A stretch of 64,000 nt of DNA from an uncultured Alphaproteobacteria bacterium (GTDB taxonomy: Bacteria > Pseudomonadota > Alphaproteobacteria > Rhizobiales > Xanthobacteraceae), in contig CAVZFU010000005.1 of NCBI GenBank assembly GCA_963774685.1, positions 1,081,538-1,145,537 on the forward strand, read 5' to 3'. Position numbers and translations under genes: made by a program. Below are positions 1 to 6,716 of this stretch, piece after piece (the first letter of the stretch is position 1; every line of letters begins with the position of its first letter). The notes below the pieces were generated by a model. That model made no database searches, had not been told where the DNA came from, and saw only the letters and a program-made list of their open reading frames with translations.

Positions 1-595
1 TGGTGATGCCGATGAACACCTGGCCGAGCTGGACATTGGGCTCGACCGTGGTGCCGACCCGGCGCACCTTGCCGACGACGTCGCCGCCGCCGATCACCTT
101 GATCTCGGCGTCCTGGCCGGGCTTGAGCTTGGCGAGATTCTCGGTCGGCACCAGGCCGACCAGGTCGAATTCGTTGCGGGCGATGATGGAAAACAGCGCC
201 TCGCCCTTGCCCGACGCATTGGCGCCGATCACCGCCGAGGAGGTGGCGATCAGCCCGCCGACCGGCGCCTGCACCTGCACCGAGCCGCCTTCCGGCAGCG
301 TGAGCCGGGCCAGCACCTGGCCGGCGGTCACGGTATCGCCGGCGTCGGCCAGGATTTCCGCGACTTTCAGGCCCTGCCGCTCGGGGCGGACCATGGTCTC
401 GTCCCGCGCGATCACGGTGCCCGAAACCTCGGCGACGGCGTCAAAGCACGACTTCGCCGCCTTGAGCACGGTGACCGTGGCGCCCTTCGGGGCGTCGGCT
501 TCGTCGGCGGCGAGGGAAGGGGACGCCGCGGCGAGGGTGAGGATGCTGGCGGCCATCGGGACCAGCCACGTCCGCGCGCGTTTGGATGCATTCAT
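1..595 (-). CDS. Efflux RND transporter periplasmic adaptor subunit (3' end outside the window); lacks the alpha-helical hairpin
   Basis: Not in the ORF track; translated manually from ATG at 595: MNASKRARTWLVPMAASILTLAAASPSLAADEADAPKGATVTVLKAAKSCFDAVAEVSGTVIARDETMVRPERQGLKVAEILADAGDTVTAGQVLARLTLPEGGSVQVQAPVGGLIATSS... It has a signal peptide and both lipoyl half-motifs, and resembles the adaptor at 10800-11729. Confidence 0.85.
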   Translation of the reverse strand, partial: MNASKRARTWLVPMAASILTLAAASPSLAADEADAPKGATVTVLKAAKSCFDAVAEVSGTVIARDETMVRPERQGLKVAEILADAGDTVTAGQVLARLTLPEGGSVQVQAPVGGLIATSSAVIGANASGKGEALFSIIARNEFDLVGLVPTENLAKLKPGQDAEIKVIGGGDVVGKVRRVGTTVEPNVQLGQVFIGIT

Positions 596-673
596 TAGCT
601 TTTGATCCCGTTTCCACGGTCATCGATATCAGAAGGCTGGCTTGGGAGCCAAGTGGCATCGAAAAGGTATAAC

Positions 674-710
674 TTGGTTTGCCAATTGGTAACATGTATG
701 GTACCATATG
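674..710 (+). promoter_or_regulatory. Putative sigma70 promoter and operator of the TA operon (leaderless start)
   Basis: TTGGTT(674-679)-N17-TATGGT(697-702), with ATG at 708 and no SD. Perfect palindrome TATGGTACCATA (697-708) overlaps the -10; CCAATTGG (682-689) lies in the spacer. Confidence 0.5.
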
Positions 711-1049
711 ATCGACGTCCAGGAATTCATTACCGAACAGGACGTAAACCCGTTCAGGCGCTGGTTTGACGATCTCGATGCTCAAGCAGCAGCCTGGGTT
801 ACGATTGCAATCGATCGGCTTGGCGAAGGCAACACTTCGAACGCGAAGTCACTTGGCGAAGGCGTTTCGGAACTGCGGATCAATCGAGGCCCCGGCTATC
901 GAATCTACTTCGGCTGGGACAGCAAGGTGCTTGTCATTCTGCTTGGCGGTGGCACCAAGCGACGGCAGCAGAGCGATATACAGACCGCGTTACATCACTG
1001 GCGTACATATAAGGCGCGCAAAGTGTCCGGACGGGCGAAGAGGGAGTAA
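708..1049 (+). CDS. Type II TA toxin, RelE/ParE superfamily (addiction module killer type)
   Basis: 113 aa with PFRRWFDDL...RLGEGN...GEGVSELRINRGPGYRIYF...LLGGGTK..QQSDI, characteristic of this family. Confidence 0.9.
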   Translation: MIDVQEFITEQDVNPFRRWFDDLDAQAAAWVTIAIDRLGEGNTSNAKSLGEGVSELRINRGPGYRIYFGWDSKVLVILLGGGTKRRQQSDIQTALHHWRTYKARKVSGRAKRE

Positions 1050-1051
1050 TC

Positions 1052-1378
1052 ATGCCGCTGACAAGAAGCTTTCGCGAGACGGTGCAAGCGCGGGCCCGCC
1101 GCGACGTCAAATTCCGGCAAGCATTACTAGCTGAAGCGATGCAGTTGCTGCTGGACGGCAATTTAGAGGAGGGGCGCTCTGCCTTGCGCTCGTGCATCAA
1201 CGCCACGGTCGGTTTCGAAAAACTTGGCAAAGCACTCGGCAGATCGCCAAAGAGCCTGATGCGCATGTTCGGACCGTCAGGCAATCCTACTGCGGAAAAT
1301 CTGCTTGCAGTGATCGGTCTGTTGCAGGAGGAGACCGGCGTTCGCCTCCACGTGCGTGCCGCGGCCGACGCTGCTTGA
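1052..1378 (+). CDS. Cognate HTH antitoxin / transcriptional regulator
   Basis: 108 aa, 2 nt after the toxin; INATVGFEKLGKALGRSPKSLMRMFGPSGNPTAENL is a Cro/C1-type HTH with the GNPT motif typical of these antidotes. Confidence 0.85.
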   Translation: MPLTRSFRETVQARARRDVKFRQALLAEAMQLLLDGNLEEGRSALRSCINATVGFEKLGKALGRSPKSLMRMFGPSGNPTAENLLAVIGLLQEETGVRLHVRAAADAA

Positions 1379-1440
1379 CGAAAGTCAAGCTTTGTAACTT
1401 GTCGCCTCTTGGCGAATTCTCCTGTCGTATCAATATGCTC

Positions 1441-1935
1441 TTACCCGACGGGCAAATCACCAAATCCTGTCAAGCCCCTCGCGTAAAAATATTCTGTTTT
1501 TCAGAAACGCGAATCAGCGCTATATCCATTCCGTCTCGCCCCCTGCAGGGGCGCTCGCGATCGTCACGGACGCGGGGCGGGATGCGGTGGACGCGGATGG
1601 CGCTGTTGACGAACAGCGCTTGACGCGGACGGTGAAGCCGTGTGGTCCTGACGCCTCGACGCCGGCGTCAAGTTTGCGAATTTTCGCAAATGACGGTGAC
1701 AAGAAAGCCCGATCACCGGGGAGAGCACGGAGTAAGCCGTAAACCATTGTGCGGGGAATGCCGGGTGATTCCGGTGTGACCGTGGTGACTGTTACTACTG
1801 GCATGGCTTGTTTTTCTGCCCTGCCAGGCTGCGGGCGCATTGGGCGCCCGGCATTCCCTGCGCCCTCTGTTTTCGAGGCGAAGGATTCTTTTACAACCCG
1901 GGTGGAATCGCGCCGCGGGATCGCGGAGGTACGTT
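1441..1935. repeat. Large, highly structured intergenic element (recalled as a dispersed Bradyrhizobiaceae repeat; possible ncRNA or non-autonomous element)
   Basis: Many hairpins: CGCCCC-TGCA-GGGGCG, GCGCTGTT-GACG-AACAGCGC, TTTGCGAA-TT-TTCGCAAA, CGGGCGC-ATTG-GCGCCCG, plus long-range GGGGAATGCCGGG / CCCGGCATTCCCT pairing. No credible ORF. The dispersed nature is recalled, not verifiable here. Confidence 0.6.
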
Positions 1936-1972
1936 TGTCGTTCCTGTGAACGCCCGCACTCGCCGCGGTTCT

Positions 1973-2125
1973 CCCTCGCCCCGCGCTTGCGGAGTCGAGA
2001 CGAGCGGAGCTCGCTCTTAGAGCGTCGGGGTGAGGGGCTCTCTCAACAGGCAGACTCGTGGAGGGTCCCCCTCACCCGAAATTCGCGATAGCGAATTTCG
2101 ACCTCTCCCCGCAAGCGGGGCGAGG
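1973..2125. repeat. REP/REPIN-like nested inverted repeat
   Basis: CCTCGCCCCGC..TTGCGG pairs with CCGCAAGCGGGGCGAGG; GGGGTGAGGGG pairs with CCCCTCACCC; internal hairpin CGAAATTCGC-GATA-GCGAATTTCG. Confidence 0.75.
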
Positions 2126-2131
2126 TAAAGT

Positions 2132-4615
2132 TTACGACGACAACTGGCTGCGCCGCGGCTCTGTGGCGGACACGTCATTCGCGGCCTCGGTCGGCTCGCC
2201 GTCGCCGATCCAGCGCAGGATATCCATGGCCAGCACCGGATGATTGAAACCCTTCAGCTGCAGGTCGTCGAGCTGGGCGGCTTCGACCCATTCCTCGACG
2301 ATGCCATAGACGCGCCGGGAGACCACGACCTGGCCGGCCTTGGCTTCGTCGCACAGCCGCGACGCCAGATTGGTGACGCTGCCGATCGCGGCATATTCCA
2401 GCCGTTGTTCGAATCCGATCTGGCCCAGCGTCGCATAGCCGAGCGCGATGCCGACGCCGAATCCGAGGCTGTGGCCGCGGTTGCGCCATTTCTGGGTCAA
2501 CAGGCCGATGGCGTCGCGCATCTCGACCGCCATCTTGACCGCGCGCCTGGTGTGGTCGGCAAACTTGATCGGCGCGTTGAACAGGATCATCACGCCGTCG
2601 CCGGCATAGCGGTCGAGCGTGCCTTCGTAGCGGAAGATCAGTTCGCCCAGTGCGGCATGATATTCGCGCAGCACGTTCATGGCTTCCTCGGGCTCGGTGG
2701 CCTCGGTGAAAGCGGTGAAGCCGCGCAGGTCGCAGAACACCACCGTCACTTCGCGGCGGTGGCTGTCGAGCAGCGAATCCTGGCCGTCGGAGGAGGCGAT
2801 CAGTTGCGCGACCTGCGGCGGCAGGAAGCGCTCGAGCCGGCGGATGCGCTCGATTTCGCCGATCTGCTTCTCGACCCGTTCTTCCAGCGACTTGTTCCAG
2901 TCCAGGAGCTGCTCGGTCTGTTCCTGCAGCTTGCCGGCCTGTTGCTGCACGATCGAATGCGCGGAGGCCAGTTCGCGGCCCTTATGGTCGACTTCGGTGA
3001 ACAGCCGCGCGTTGCGCATGGCGAGCACCGATTGATGCGCAAAGGTCCGCATCAGTCCGATCAGGTTCGGCGAGAATTCGCCGGTGGCCCGGCGCAGCAC
3101 CACCAGCGATCCGAGCGTGCCCTGCTGGTCGACCAGCGGCACCACCAGCACCGATTGAAAGCCGGCCTTGAGCGCGATATCGCGCAACAGGTTGTCGTCG
3201 GCGCCGGCAAGGTCGGAAATCGCGATCGGCTCGTCCCTGGTGGCGGCTTCGCCGAGCACGCTGGCGCCGTAGTCGATCGCAAGGTGCGCGCCTTCGGCGG
3301 TCTTGTCGATGCCGATGGCCTCGGTCAGGTTGAACTGCTGCTTTGCCGCGTCATAGCCGTAGATCAGCACCGCGTCGGCATGGGTGATTTCGAGCGCGCG
3401 CGCCGCCACCGTCGGCAGCACGGCGTTGAGATCGAGCGAGGAGGAGACGGCGCGGCCGACTTCCTCGAGCACTTTGAGTTCGTTGACCGAGCGCGCCAGA
3501 TCGCGGGTGCGCTCCTGGACCTTGGATTCAAGGCCCGAATAGGTCTCGGCGAGCTGGCCCGCCATGCTGTTGAACTGGTCGGCGAGCTCCTTCAGCTCAT
3601 CCCTGGTGCGCACTTCGATGCGGTGGCTGAAATCGCCTTCGCCGAGACGGCGCGCGCCGCTGCGCAAGGCGGTGATCGGGATCAGCATGCGTCGCGCCAG
3701 CACGGTGCCGGCGAGACTCGCCACCACCAGCCCGAGCATGATCAACAGCACGATCCGCGCCAGCTGATCGCGGATCGGCGCCATCGCCTGGCTGGTCGGT
3801 TGCTCGAAGAACACGTACCAGCCGAGTTTCGGCAGTCCGTTCGATGCGGTCAGCACCGCATGGCCGTCGGTATCGGTGCCCGAGGTCGGAGCCTGGCTCG
3901 CCGAGGTCAGGCGTGCGGCGACCTGCGGCAGGGTCGCGACGTTCTTGCCGACCTCCGGGCCCTTCGACGAACTCGCCAGCACCTGGCCTTTCGGATCGAC
4001 CACATAGGCAAAGGCGGCCCTGCCGACCTGGGCGTCGCCGATAAATTCCGACAGGAAATGCAGGTCGATATCGGCGATGGTGACCCCGGCGTTGTAGCCG
4101 GAATGCGACACCGAGATCGACATGAAGGGCTGCCGCTCCCGGAAGAACGCCGGCGAGTAGCTGACGCCCCTCGCAACGGTTTCGGTGAATCTCGGGTCGT
4201 GGGAGAGGTCGGCCTTGCTGCCGACCGCAATCGTCAGGCGCGACAGCCGCAACAGTTCACGGCCGCTGCCGTCGATCAGCGAGAGCTGGTTGACCGCGGG
4301 CACCTGGTTGAGCAGCTGGGCATAGTCGGCGCGGTGCTGTTCGAGCGGCGCGCGCGCTGCGTCCGAACTGGCGCGGGTCACCCAGCTGATCTGCCGCTCG
4401 AGTTCGGAGACCGACTGTTCGATCCGCCGCGCGGTGGTCTCGGCCTTGTCCGACATCGCCCCGGTCAGCGTGGTCTTGATGCTGCTGTAGCTGATCCAGG
4501 TTTCCAGCGCGCCGTTGACCGCGAGCACGAACACGACAAGACCAACCAGCGCGATCACGTATTTGGCGAACAGGCCCTCGCGCAGACGTCCAATTTTTTC
4601 CCTGAAACCGCTCAT
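2132..4615 (-). CDS. Membrane class III adenylate/guanylate cyclase (TM-Cache-TM-HAMP-GAF-cyclase)
   Basis: 827 aa with two TM segments, HAMP (DELKELADQFNSM), GAF (GTLGSLVV...TFAHQSVLAM) and catalytic motifs FCDLRGFT, AGDGVM, NLASRL. Confidence 0.92.
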   Translation of the reverse strand: MSGFREKIGRLREGLFAKYVIALVGLVVFVLAVNGALETWISYSSIKTTLTGAMSDKAETTARRIEQSVSELERQISWVTRASSDAARAPLEQHRADYAQLLNQVPAVNQLSLIDGSGRELLRLSRLTIAVGSKADLSHDPRFTETVARGVSYSPAFFRERQPFMSISVSHSGYNAGVTIADIDLHFLSEFIGDAQVGRAAFAYVVDPKGQVLASSSKGPEVGKNVATLPQVAARLTSASQAPTSGTDTDGHAVLTASNGLPKLGWYVFFEQPTSQAMAPIRDQLARIVLLIMLGLVVASLAGTVLARRMLIPITALRSGARRLGEGDFSHRIEVRTRDELKELADQFNSMAGQLAETYSGLESKVQERTRDLARSVNELKVLEEVGRAVSSSLDLNAVLPTVAARALEITHADAVLIYGYDAAKQQFNLTEAIGIDKTAEGAHLAIDYGASVLGEAATRDEPIAISDLAGADDNLLRDIALKAGFQSVLVVPLVDQQGTLGSLVVLRRATGEFSPNLIGLMRTFAHQSVLAMRNARLFTEVDHKGRELASAHSIVQQQAGKLQEQTEQLLDWNKSLEERVEKQIGEIERIRRLERFLPPQVAQLIASSDGQDSLLDSHRREVTVVFCDLRGFTAFTEATEPEEAMNVLREYHAALGELIFRYEGTLDRYAGDGVMILFNAPIKFADHTRRAVKMAVEMRDAIGLLTQKWRNRGHSLGFGVGIALGYATLGQIGFEQRLEYAAIGSVTNLASRLCDEAKAGQVVVSRRVYGIVEEWVEAAQLDDLQLKGFNHPVLAMDILRWIGDGEPTEAANDVSATEPRRSQLSS

Positions 4616-4732
4616 CCAGTCCCCTCGTGCGCCATTCCTAGCACAAATCGGGGGGTTTTGGCCGGGGACTGCCGGTGTGGTTAGCCGGGATTTTGGGCCG
4701 TTAATGCTAATTCCGGCGGCAGTGATGGAGGC

Positions 4733-6716
4733 CTAGCGATTGAATAACTGCTTGAGGACGTTGTTCATCGGCTGGCTGTCCTGCGGGGGCTGCGACGTCG
4801 AGTTGCTCTGCGCGCGGAGGCGTTGCGGCCGGCGGCGCGGCCGGGTTGGGGGGGCCGCCTTGCACGTTGCGGTTATTGCCCAATCCCTGCTGCAGCAGGT
4901 TACCGAGGGTCTCGCCGAGCTTGCCGCCGAGCAGGCCGGACTGGTCGGTGCCGCCGCCGATCCGGGGCCGCCAGATTGCGAGGTTGCCGAGACCGCCGCC
5001 TGCGAACAGGCCTTTGCCCATCTCCCTGAGCTTGGCATAGGCCGCGTCGGGGTTGTCGAAAATGCCGTTCATTTCCGGATAGATGCGCGGCTGGGCCCAG
5101 GGGCCGTCGATGATGACGGGAATGCCGAGCCCGACCGGGTCGCCGGCGCGGCCCTGGCCTTCGGTGGTCATCACGAGCTTCGGCTCGACCCGGAACGCGA
5201 GCTGCTTGCCGATCAGGTCGATGGTGCCGGCGCCGGTCATTTTAACCAGCGGGCCCACCAGGGTGAGATCGGAGGTGGTGGCCTGGCCCTTGTCGAGCCG
5301 GAACGAGGCGCTGAGCTGCGCAAGGTCGGTGGCTTGTCCTTTGCCTTCCTGCCAACCCGACAGCGTTCCCGAGGTCAGCGAACGGATCATCTGGGCGACG
5401 TTGAGGCCGCGGATCGCGCCGTCCTGGAAAATCGCGAACACCGTTCCGTTCAAATTCGAGACGATCTCGCGCGGGCTGTTGCCGGAGGAGTTTACAACGA
5501 TCTTGGCCTGCATCTTTCCATCGAGCTTGTCGAAATCGGCCGCGCTCTTGAGCAGCGCCAGCGCGCCAACCCCGGCAAGATCGCTGCGCAGCGTGTAGGC
5601 CGGATAGGCTGCGGATACATCGACGGTGAGTTGGCCGCCGGCCTGGCCGTCATAGGCCCCGAGATTGGGGAAGTCGGCCTTGAGCACGCCGCTGACGAGC
5701 GTGGTGTCGATCGCAGCGGGGGCGAAATGCGCCGCGCCGATGTTCAATTCGGCGGCGGAAACCCTGACCTGGAGGTCGATATAGTTCAGCCGGTTGACGT
5801 CGATCGATTCGGTGCTCCAGCCCTGCTGGGAAGCCTGCGAAGCAACCGGGGCGGCAGCCGCCGGTGTCGTGATGTCAAGCCGCTGGAAGTCGAGATCGAC
5901 TTTTACCAGCGGCTTGCTGGAGAGATCGACCGATGCCCATCCGTTGAATGCGCCATCGCCGATCGTCCCGCTCAGGCCGTTGATCATGGCGACCGAACCG
6001 TTGAGCCGGACGTCGGCCTTGCCCGACAGCGGAGCCTGCAGACGATTCGGGTCGTCGAGGGTCAGTTCGACCGGAAAGTTTTGCCGCTCGATCGGGGAAG
6101 CCGGCAGCGCCGCCCTGATTCCGAATTTGATCGGGCGTTCGCCCGCGCCGGCACTGCCGTTGATCTCGATCCTTCGATCGTCGCCGATCTTGATATCGGC
6201 ATTGATGTTGTCGATACGGCTGTTGACGAGGTCCCGCACGTTGGAAAATACCGCGGTGCCGTCGGTGACCGTCACGTGATCGATGACGAAAGCCTTCGCA
6301 TCGGTCGTGCTGGAGGATGTCGCCGGCCGGGGCGGCAAATTGGGTGCAATGGTGCGTTCGCGCAGCAGCGGGATGTGGACGGTCGGGTGAACAATCGCAA
6401 GCTCGGTGACTTGCGGATGACCCGACCATACGCTGGCAAGCGTCACATCGGCCTCGACGCTGCCGATGGTCAGGTGCTTGCTGATGTCGCGTTGTTGCGG
6501 GTCCTCAAGCGTGAGGTCTTTCAACGTCAGGTGCAGCGACGGCCAGATGCCGATTTTGGTCCCGCCGTGGATGGTCAGCTGATAGCCGGTTTCGCGCTCG
6601 ACCTGGTCCTGTATCGCCGACGTCAGAAAGCCGGAGGGAACGCCGACGATCAGCAACAGGATCGCGACAACCACCACGGCAGCGATGGTTGTGCCTGCAA
6701 TTTTCAGTGCTTTCAT
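4733..6716 (-). CDS. AsmA family protein (apparent +1 frameshift near 4815)
   Basis: N-terminal anchor with AsmA-like N and C domains. The plausible C-terminus QDSQPMNNVLKQLFNR* lies in another frame ending at 4733. Confidence 0.8.

Follow-up and report, generated by a model that had tools for sequence, protein, structure and literature searches.

A probable family of dispersed, homogenised large-RNA genes in Bradyrhizobium and its relatives, with a covarying fold and a shared promoter-like signal

Several bacterial non-coding RNAs of more than 350 nt, including OLE, ROOL, GOLLD and the raiA motif RNA, combine a covarying multi-domain fold and long-range helices with independence from any downstream gene, and their functions were unknown at discovery. 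A predicted RNA with the same properties is encoded in a 64,000-nt stretch of DNA (the window) from an uncultured alphaproteobacterium of the family Xanthobacteraceae (assembly GCA_963774685.1, contig CAVZFU010000005.1, positions 1,081,538 to 1,145,537, forward strand). Its gene occupies a repeat unit of about 490 nt, related copies of which are dispersed through the genome holding the window (its own genome, G000; 5.3 Mb, six contigs) and through Bradyrhizobium genomes. This large RNA differs from its described counterparts in that it has no sequence or structure match in Rfam 15. They are usually single-copy or prophage-borne, whereas it is chromosomal, present in up to 40 or more copies and homogenised within a genome; OLE has adjoining partner-protein genes, whereas none was seen beside the large RNA. 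The RNA is not described in the passages of candidate papers returned by a full-text literature search, and the Bradyrhizobium repetitive extragenic palindromes (REPs) and small RNAs (sRNAs) in PMC5082802 are different and much smaller.

Other known systems resemble the large RNA in part. HEARO, the omega-RNA of IscB, and the omega-RNA of TnpB are also large and structured and can be present in dozens of copies, often without an adjacent protein gene. However, the large RNA does not match HEARO in Rfam and lacks a fixed-length variable guide segment at either end, and the genomes richest in it lack Y1 and TnpB zinc-ribbon domains save for one weak TnpB match (IscB was not among the searches). 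REPs and bacterial interspersed mosaic elements (BIMEs), miniature inverted-repeat transposable elements (MITEs) and the Br-REP1 and Br-REP2 elements of Bradyrhizobium (PMC5082802) are likewise dispersed, intergenic and variable in number among related genomes, and elements of this kind adjoin the unit. A REP is a palindrome of 20-40 nt, and a MITE is bounded by terminal inverted repeats and target duplications, whereas the unit is about 500 nt long, asymmetric, without either feature, and furnished with a promoter-like region. The short interspersed elements (SINEs) Alu and B1, derived from 7SL, offer the parallel of a folded RNA with its own promoter and many dispersed copies that cluster by genome. 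Unlike SINEs, the unit has no A-tails, truncations or target duplications, and no reverse transcriptase was found in the high-copy genomes; moreover, an RNA intermediate would not carry the promoter, because the promoter lies upstream rather than internally as in SINEs. Finally, multigene sRNA families under one regulator, such as Qrr1-5 and the CsrB/CsrC-type sponges, consist of paralogous RNA genes with one promoter signature and a dosage set by copy number; the large-RNA promoter type likewise occurs on a small sRNA gene. The Qrr and Csr families comprise two to five RNAs, each about 100-350 nt long and made up of simple repeated hairpins, whereas the large RNA has tens of members and a bigger, intricate fold.

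The locus is best classed as a large structured non-coding RNA gene in an undescribed form, a concertedly evolving family of several dozen copies. The members of this family are probably dispersed, homogenised genes whose product, a structured RNA about 400 nt long, acts in trans, and which answer to a dedicated promoter signal. The unit is longer than 300 nt, has a covarying multi-helix fold, is independent of its neighbours and is non-coding, as are large structured non-coding RNAs generally. An earlier note on this DNA, made from the letters alone, had placed an element at 1441-1935. BLAST and nhmmer searches against the own genome return nearly the same limits (Table 1): the longest matches run from query position 36-63 to 548-552, or about 1415-1442 to 1927-1931 of the window, and a conserved 3' tail motif extends the right edge to about 1937. 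The element is multicopy, a point for which the note had proposed a BLASTN search. A profile search finds 41 full-length copies among 43 in the own genome, all 41 intergenic and 78-95% identical, with no pair above 95%. One of the remaining two is truncated (C3:185683-185956) and one is divergent (C5:684361-684860 in the profile search). The note's statement that relatives are dispersed in Bradyrhizobiaceae spacers also proved sound: a conserved 21-mer has hits in soil metagenome-assembled genomes (MAGs) and in Bradyrhizobium genomes, with 118 loci or more in all.

Evidence for an RNA fold comes from both single-sequence and comparative analyses. The minimum free energy (MFE) of the window copy is -204.8 kcal/mol on the plus strand (z = -5.0, 100 shuffles) and -168.9 kcal/mol on the minus strand (z = -3.9). 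For covariation, 114 distinct copies with a mean pairwise identity of 66% were aligned: the window copy, 28 own-genome paralogues, and 85 copies from other Bradyrhizobium genomes and soil MAGs collected with the conserved 21-mer. The RNAalifold consensus contains 113 pairs in 19 helices, and 50 of the pairs are changed on both sides. Standard pairs fill 93.7% of the paired cells, compared with 35-50% when every 3' partner is slid by one to three columns. Compensatory cells number 694, against 196 +/- 17.5 after shuffling, and none of 500 shuffles matches any of five measures; the shuffle control can be inflated by kinship of the sequences, but the slid controls retain that kinship and are still far lower. 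The same three-domain fold is recovered in full-length homologues from other genera of the family.

These results bear out most of the structure proposed from the window copy. The five or more local hairpins and the long-range helix exceed chance both by MFE and by covariation, for which an alignment of copies had been suggested as a check. The 13-bp long-range helix, GGGGAATGCCGGG with CCCGGCATTCCCT, is the core of helix P9 and covaries, for example GCGCG..UGCGC versus GUGUG..CACGC. The purine-rich single-stranded linkers fared less uniformly. One of them, GACAAGAAAGCCC, is the loop of hairpin P8; in the other, GGAGAGCACGGAGTAAGCC, the AGUAAG segment is indeed an unpaired junction, but GGAGAGCACGG forms the 3' strand of P5, and the closing CC already belongs to P4, as the start of its 3' strand. 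Among paired cells, G·U accounts for 13.1% and A·C for 2.1%, a ratio of about six to one, and several positions are G·U in the majority of copies. Because G·U so far exceeds A·C, the plus strand is the folded strand, as fits an RNA.

Neither a protein product nor membership of a described RNA family accounts for this conservation. The earlier note had seen no credible open reading frame (ORF), and none is conserved: even the most persistent frame is open in about 48% of the 114 copies, 1-2-nt indels often disrupt each of the frames, and Pfam yields no match for any of the four ORFs called here in the window. Thus no ORF stays open and in frame across the homologues, as that of a protein gene or type I toxin mRNA would. 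A search of Rfam 15 with window positions 1-6000 at E <= 1 places nothing inside the element, and positions 1430-1960 at E <= 10 yield only noise (sX6 at 11 bits versus 40, mir-638 at 17.6 versus 87).

Table 1. Features of the repeat unit and of the predicted RNA (window coordinates).
Feature	Position	Strand	Basis
Whole repeat unit: upstream control region and RNA-coding part	1440-1937	+	BLAST, nhmmer against own genome
Distal promoter-like module CTTACCCGACGGGCAAATCA at the left boundary of the unit	1440-1459	+	3 mismatches from TTGACNCGTCGGGCAAATCA
Conserved upstream block CTGTCAAGCCCC	1467-1478	+	GTC[CA]AG at -64 +/- 1 in 81/111 copies
A/T-rich block GTAAAAATATT	1483-1493	+	AAA[AT]AT[AT] at -47 +/- 2 in 79/111 copies
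Palindrome TTCTG-N5-CAGAA over the -35 position	1492-1506	+	TTCYGA-N3-TYRGAA in 28/111 copies, mostly own-genome ones
Spacer motif GAATCA (family consensus AAATCA), then -10-like TATATC (1521-1526)	1511-1526	+	
Domain I: P1 (1532-1542 with 1574-1584) around small hairpins P1a and P1b	1532-1584	+	Consensus fold
Domain II: P2 (1586-1590 with 1744-1748) closing the multi-way junction P3-P8	1586-1748	+	Consensus fold
Domain III: 19-bp P9 (1749-1767 with 1845-1863), P10, P10b, apical P11 (1798-1806 with 1819-1827)	1749-1863	+	
Variable linker with local hairpin starting at CCCUCU	1864-1896	+	Hairpin retained across copies
3' hairpin P13 (1897-1904 with 1911-1919) and conserved tail ..GCGGAG-N-YRTRTY	1897-1937	+	

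The three domains and the 3' region differ in how their conservation is distributed (Table 1). In domain I, seven of the 11 pairs of P1 are changed on both sides, and 92% of its cells are paired. The G·U-rich long-range helix P2 of domain II is 100% paired and P4, P5, P6 and P8 are 99-100% paired with covariation, and in the variable hairpin P7 eight of 10 pairs are changed on both sides; this domain also carries the invariant blocks AAGUCGUGUGGUCCUGAC and GGAGAGCACGAAGGAA. The helices of domain III are the same in the single-sequence MFE fold. Here P9 is 95% paired with six pairs changed on both sides, and P11 is 98% paired with seven of eight changed on both sides. In P3, P7 and P11, sequence and length are free to vary while pairing is retained. 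The linker hairpin likewise persists although its sequence differs between copies, with variants such as CCCUCUGAUCGGAGGG, CGCCCUCUUGGGCG and GCCUUCUUUUCGGAGAAGGC, and no U-tract follows it. P13 has eight pairs, four changed on both sides, and is 95% paired; the tail motif is conserved across genomes, and similarity between copies stops just past it. GAGGG in domain I might pair with the CCCUC that follows P9 to form a pseudoknot. The G/A and C/U frequencies suggest pairing, with 10 A-C cases and a competing local hairpin set against it. In five copies from Bradyrhizobium strains (L077, L083, L142, L146 and L052, from sp. McL0616, cir1, CCBAU 43298, sp. 141 and DOA9, respectively), the profile matches only from position ~100, and domain I is thus replaced or highly diverged in a subfamily of large-genome strains.

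A second line of evidence concerns the region upstream of P1, where blocks stand at fixed distances in 70-84% of 111 copies, counted from the first base of P1. In 68 of the 111 the motif GGCAAATC occurs, in one orientation or the other, between -75 and -100, and AAATCA is found at -22 +/- 1 in 93. A -10-like hexamer at -12 (45 of 111) and a CTTG or -35-like box at -37 are each present in about 40%. Judging by its position, the A/T-rich block may be an UP element, and the palindrome over the -35 position may be an operator. The position of the -10-like hexamer predicts a transcript start at about 1531-1534. The core TTGACNCGTCGGGCAAATCA, which the distal module of the window copy resembles, also stands before a small sRNA gene of the own genome that has a terminator. 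All four copies of that gene are preceded by TTGAC-N-CGTCGGGCAAATCA-N4-CATATC with an A-rich tract before it, an arrangement common to the large RNA, whose spacer in many other genomes is exactly CCGTCGGGCAAATCA. These shared signals suggest a real promoter class with a specific, dedicated factor. As the regulator or sigma factor of this promoter, FixK, Irr, PhoB, LexA, CtrA, EcfG and RpoH are no convincing fit.

The sRNA gene itself is about 55 nt long and lies outside the window, with three copies in tandem about 211 nt apart at C3:117377-117820 (minus strand) and one at C5:398603 (plus strand). Its promoter reads AAAAAGAATTTGAC(A/C)CGTCGGGCAAATCAC(C/T)GGCA(C/T)ATC, and its predicted transcript, ..GUCGCAAGAAUUAAGCCCGCGCCGGGAAACCGGUCGCGGGCUUUUU, ends in a hairpin and U-run that form a textbook intrinsic terminator. 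It has no Rfam match at E <= 0.1.

The distribution of the large RNA is uneven. Among 13 genomes of the same genus, copies of the conserved core number 0, 1, 1, 1, 2, 4, 5, 10, 16 and 21, with at least 40 in each of three, and larger genomes tend to have fewer (Spearman -0.71, p = 0.006, n = 13, without correction for phylogeny). Screening the family with a covariance model built on domain II, in which at most 22 candidates per genome were scored, gives matches to the RNA in 23 genomes out of 151 and in 11 genera out of 62, mostly with 1-16 copies. No copies of the large RNA occur in 72,556 plasmids and 50,697 phages, and in IMG/VR only three contigs are touched, each match lying near an end of the fetched stretch.

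Comparison of sites points to turnover. Of 19 loci that are occupied in other species and whose flanks can be placed in the own genome, 17 are empty there, which supplies the occupied and empty pairs that the earlier note had thought worth seeking. At the window site, just 3' of the cyclase gene, eight of the 29 other species examined have a full-length copy and five more a partial or divergent one, all oriented alike. Exact junctions are not visible because the nearest genome at this locus is only ~89% identical; more generally, occupied and empty species pairs are only ~85% identical and their sites also hold other REPs, which blurs the junctions. Given the empty sites and the range of copy number, the element does move or turn over on an evolutionary time scale and needs some means of spread.

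In the tree, the 29 own copies all fall into a single clade, and copies from other genomes cluster by genome only in part (26 label changes, where 16 would be the minimum and shuffles give 38.5). No common group unites the positional homologues of the window copy, which are 66-77% identical to it, whereas own paralogues reach 84-87%. Because an old site holds a genome-specific type and the 5' and 3' modules are visibly reshuffled between copies, recombination or gene conversion among copies is the best explanation, although repeated insertion at a hot spot could possibly account for the window site instead. Among the 29 own paralogues (85.5% mean identity, 14.5% mean difference), 57% of columns are invariant and paired columns are half as variable as unpaired ones, and across all 114 copies long blocks are invariant while adjacent hairpins are rewritten. 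This pattern fits either constraint on every copy or frequent conversion from constrained copies. The divergent copy in the own genome, which spans C5:684262-684860 when its nhmmer pieces at profile positions 2-79 and 83-415 are joined, shares its site with a copy in another species (L121) and may represent an older or decaying lineage of the family.

Taken together, these data are consistent with the following model. RNA polymerase would start at ~1531-1534 from the upstream promoter-like region, and a dedicated factor would read the GGGCAAATCA-type motif common to the large RNA and the small sRNA gene. Under such a factor the copies would together make up a single regulon, with a dosage that depends on how many there are. 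The RNA would act in trans rather than in cis, as a protein-binding or scaffold RNA. Recombination or gene conversion would keep copies alike within a genome, while a process at the DNA level would add and remove copies over time.

Several observations weigh against this model. Neither a partner protein nor a phenotype points to a function. A strict E. coli-type sigma-70 scan calls no promoter in the window copy, so that the promoter assignment rests on conservation, and no intrinsic terminator is called there, leaving the 3' end of the large RNA undefined. Of the private substitutions at paired columns of the own copies, 18 disrupt the pair and 18 preserve it (elsewhere 30 and 40), so that selection on each single copy is not strong. 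The positional homologues are no closer to the window copy (66-77% identity) than the third codon positions of the adjacent gene are to their counterparts (71-78%). The spread of copy number and the 17 empty sites fit selfish spread equally well.

A more far-reaching proposal, which we put forward tentatively, is that the unit is a self-contained, promoter-carrying RNA-gene cassette that multiplies without a recognisable transposase, reverse transcriptase or RNA-guided nuclease, so that both the job of the RNA and its means of spread would be new. Such a cassette would sit at dozens of chromosomal sites, homogenised in each genome under one dedicated promoter signal, and might serve, for example, as a new ribonucleoprotein or self-assembling RNA, a suggestion we hold just as tentatively.

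Somewhat doubtful, yet the strongest of the rivals, is the explanation that the unit is a selfish non-autonomous mobile element whose fold is kept so that its RNA or single-stranded DNA form can be recognised in trans by a mobilising machine. It could be a SINE-like retroelement, a transposon end or a guide-RNA relic, with the promoter merely making the intermediate. Spread of this kind would account for copy numbers that rise as genomes shrink, for the empty sites, for the restriction to intergenic places with some preference for gene 3' ends, for a single clade of own copies as after a burst, for private substitutions half of which break pairs, and for reshuffled modules. However, the usual traces of mobility are lacking. 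The ends of the unit, CTTACCCGACGGG... and ...GCGGAGGTACGTTTG, are not inverted repeats of one another, and the longest word shared between flanks averages 4.65, in no excess over the 4.39 +/- 0.20 of mismatched pairs, so that there are neither terminal inverted repeats nor target-site duplications above chance. With no copy pair above 95% identity there is no sign of recent activity, 41 of the 43 copies are full length without 5' truncations or A-tails, and one site is conserved in at least 13 species.

Enzymes that might mobilise the unit are also hard to find. No copy contains or adjoins a transposase, nuclease or reverse-transcriptase gene, no version that is longer and bears an ORF was found, and none of the plasmids and phages searched carries the large RNA. 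There is no Rfam intron or retron match. Six-frame searches covered reverse transcriptases (RVT_1), Y1 transposases (IS200/IS605 or RAYT) and TnpB, but not IscB or IS110-type enzymes, in four high-copy genomes with 16 to more than 40 copies (G000, G003, G010 and G012, the last with more than 40); control genomes gave matches for these enzymes. PF00078 (RVT_1) has no match in any of the four, while low-copy genomes have up to 13, and PF01797 (Y1_Tnp) has none in the four either. PF07282 (the TnpB zinc ribbon) is missing from G000, G003 and G010, and G012 has one weak match (E = 3e-6, 30.3 bits, over the cut-off). Of the two readings that the earlier note had entertained, a large structured RNA has thus gained from covariation, strand asymmetry, the promoter-like region and the lack of an ORF or Rfam match. 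A non-autonomous element with a partner enzyme has found no inverted repeats, duplications, adjoining enzyme, plasmid or phage copies, or enzymes of the RVT_1, Y1 or TnpB type in its favour. Nor do copies flank a nuclease, transposase or reverse-transcriptase gene, an arrangement that the note had proposed to look for. Selfish spread nevertheless has to be retained as a model, because the pattern of gain and loss demands some mechanism.

The genomic context bears on whether the unit acts in cis. The spacer of 750 nt that holds it (window 1380-2131) is bounded on the left by a Gp49/HigB-like toxin gene (708-1049) and the gene for a 108-aa partner (1052-1378), and on the right by a convergent dCache-HAMP-GAF-cyclase gene on the minus strand (2132-4615). 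The toxin matches Pfam PF05973 (E = 5e-7), the overlapping partner has no Pfam match, and together they are the toxin-antitoxin pair of the earlier note. At the 41 full copies, 15 neighbour pairs are convergent, nine and eight are co-directional, six are divergent, and three lack a called upstream gene. The downstream gene lies on the opposite strand in 24 of the 41, and copies are somewhat more often at gene 3' ends. No protein family recurs beside the own copies, since clustering gave only four unrelated pairs; in low-copy genera, Pfam assigns the neighbours unrelated functions (a permease, PhaR, a glyoxalase, Crp, AcrB and an IS3 transposase). Small ORFs that recur near the copies are REP-derived pseudo-frames only (130 loci). 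The copies therefore hold no constant place upstream of a coherent set of same-strand genes, as a riboswitch or leader would.

BLAST of the spacer against the own genome also uncovers a second, unrelated, REP-like repeat family, at window 1969-2130, with about 45 genome copies of 110-160 nt and nested palindromes. A sub-threshold match to whalefall-1 (2068-2128, minus strand; 28.1 bits versus 37) is explained by the REP-like family that fills this stretch. Long palindromic REPs of a few types, such as CGTCATTGCGAGCGAAGCGAAGCAATCC...GGATTGCTTCG.., GTAGGGTGGGCAAAGGCGC.. or GTCGTCCCTGCGAAAGCAGGGAC..., very often abut the 3' tail of the large RNA, both in the own genome (for example L014, L013 and L021) and in others (L100, L140 and L108). 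It might be guessed that these REPs define or protect the 3' end or act as terminators, or that they merely prefer such sites.

A cis-acting role is improbable, whether as a leader resembling a riboswitch, as a terminator or stabiliser at mRNA 3' ends, or as a REP/BIME-type structural DNA repeat. It would suit the intergenic position, often between convergent genes (15 of 41) and usually followed by palindromic REPs, and according to PMC5082802 Bradyrhizobium REPs are transcribed within 3' untranslated regions. However, the frequent downstream gene on the other strand and the absence of a recurring gene family are not expected of such an element. The unit is also about ten times the size of a REP, with a multi-domain fold and long-range helices, and has its own promoter-like region, while the G·U asymmetry indicates one folded strand rather than a signal in duplex DNA.

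Very unlikely, finally, is a hidden small protein gene or a hok-type type I toxin mRNA within the structured transcript: hok-type mRNAs are, like the unit, ~400 nt long, highly folded and multicopy, and ORFs of 50-106 codons occur on both strands, among them a plus-strand frame that starts at the ATG within GGGAUGCGG, stops at the UAA within CCGUAAAA and is open in about half of the copies, but no frame does better than this among the 114, every frame is interrupted by indels, no Pfam match is found, conservation tracks base pairing rather than codons, and open frames are expected by chance because the DNA is so GC-rich.

Returning to the probable family of trans-acting RNA genes, this locus adds the high end of a copy-number range that runs inversely to genome size, one anciently occupied site among mostly lineage-specific ones, monophyly of copies within a genome, a promoter signature held in common with a small sRNA, and the absence of the usual mobility enzymes for which searches were made (reverse transcriptase, Y1 and TnpB). 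As a candidate new class of large RNA, the family offers rich natural covariation, with dozens of paralogues per genome in hundreds of genomes, and the GGGCAAATCA-type promoter defines a candidate regulon. It also lends itself to studying how non-coding genes can increase in number and remain similar where known mobility enzymes are lacking. The finding would be categorically new if the function of the RNA or its mode of spread proves unprecedented. Present annotations either miss the copies or turn them into spurious hypothetical ORFs, and short-read assemblies can break at them. In soil, Bradyrhizobium and its relatives rank with the most abundant bacteria, and major legume symbionts belong to them; if ~0.4% of a genome is given over to an undescribed, intricately folded RNA of about 400 nt, knowledge of this group would have a sizeable gap.

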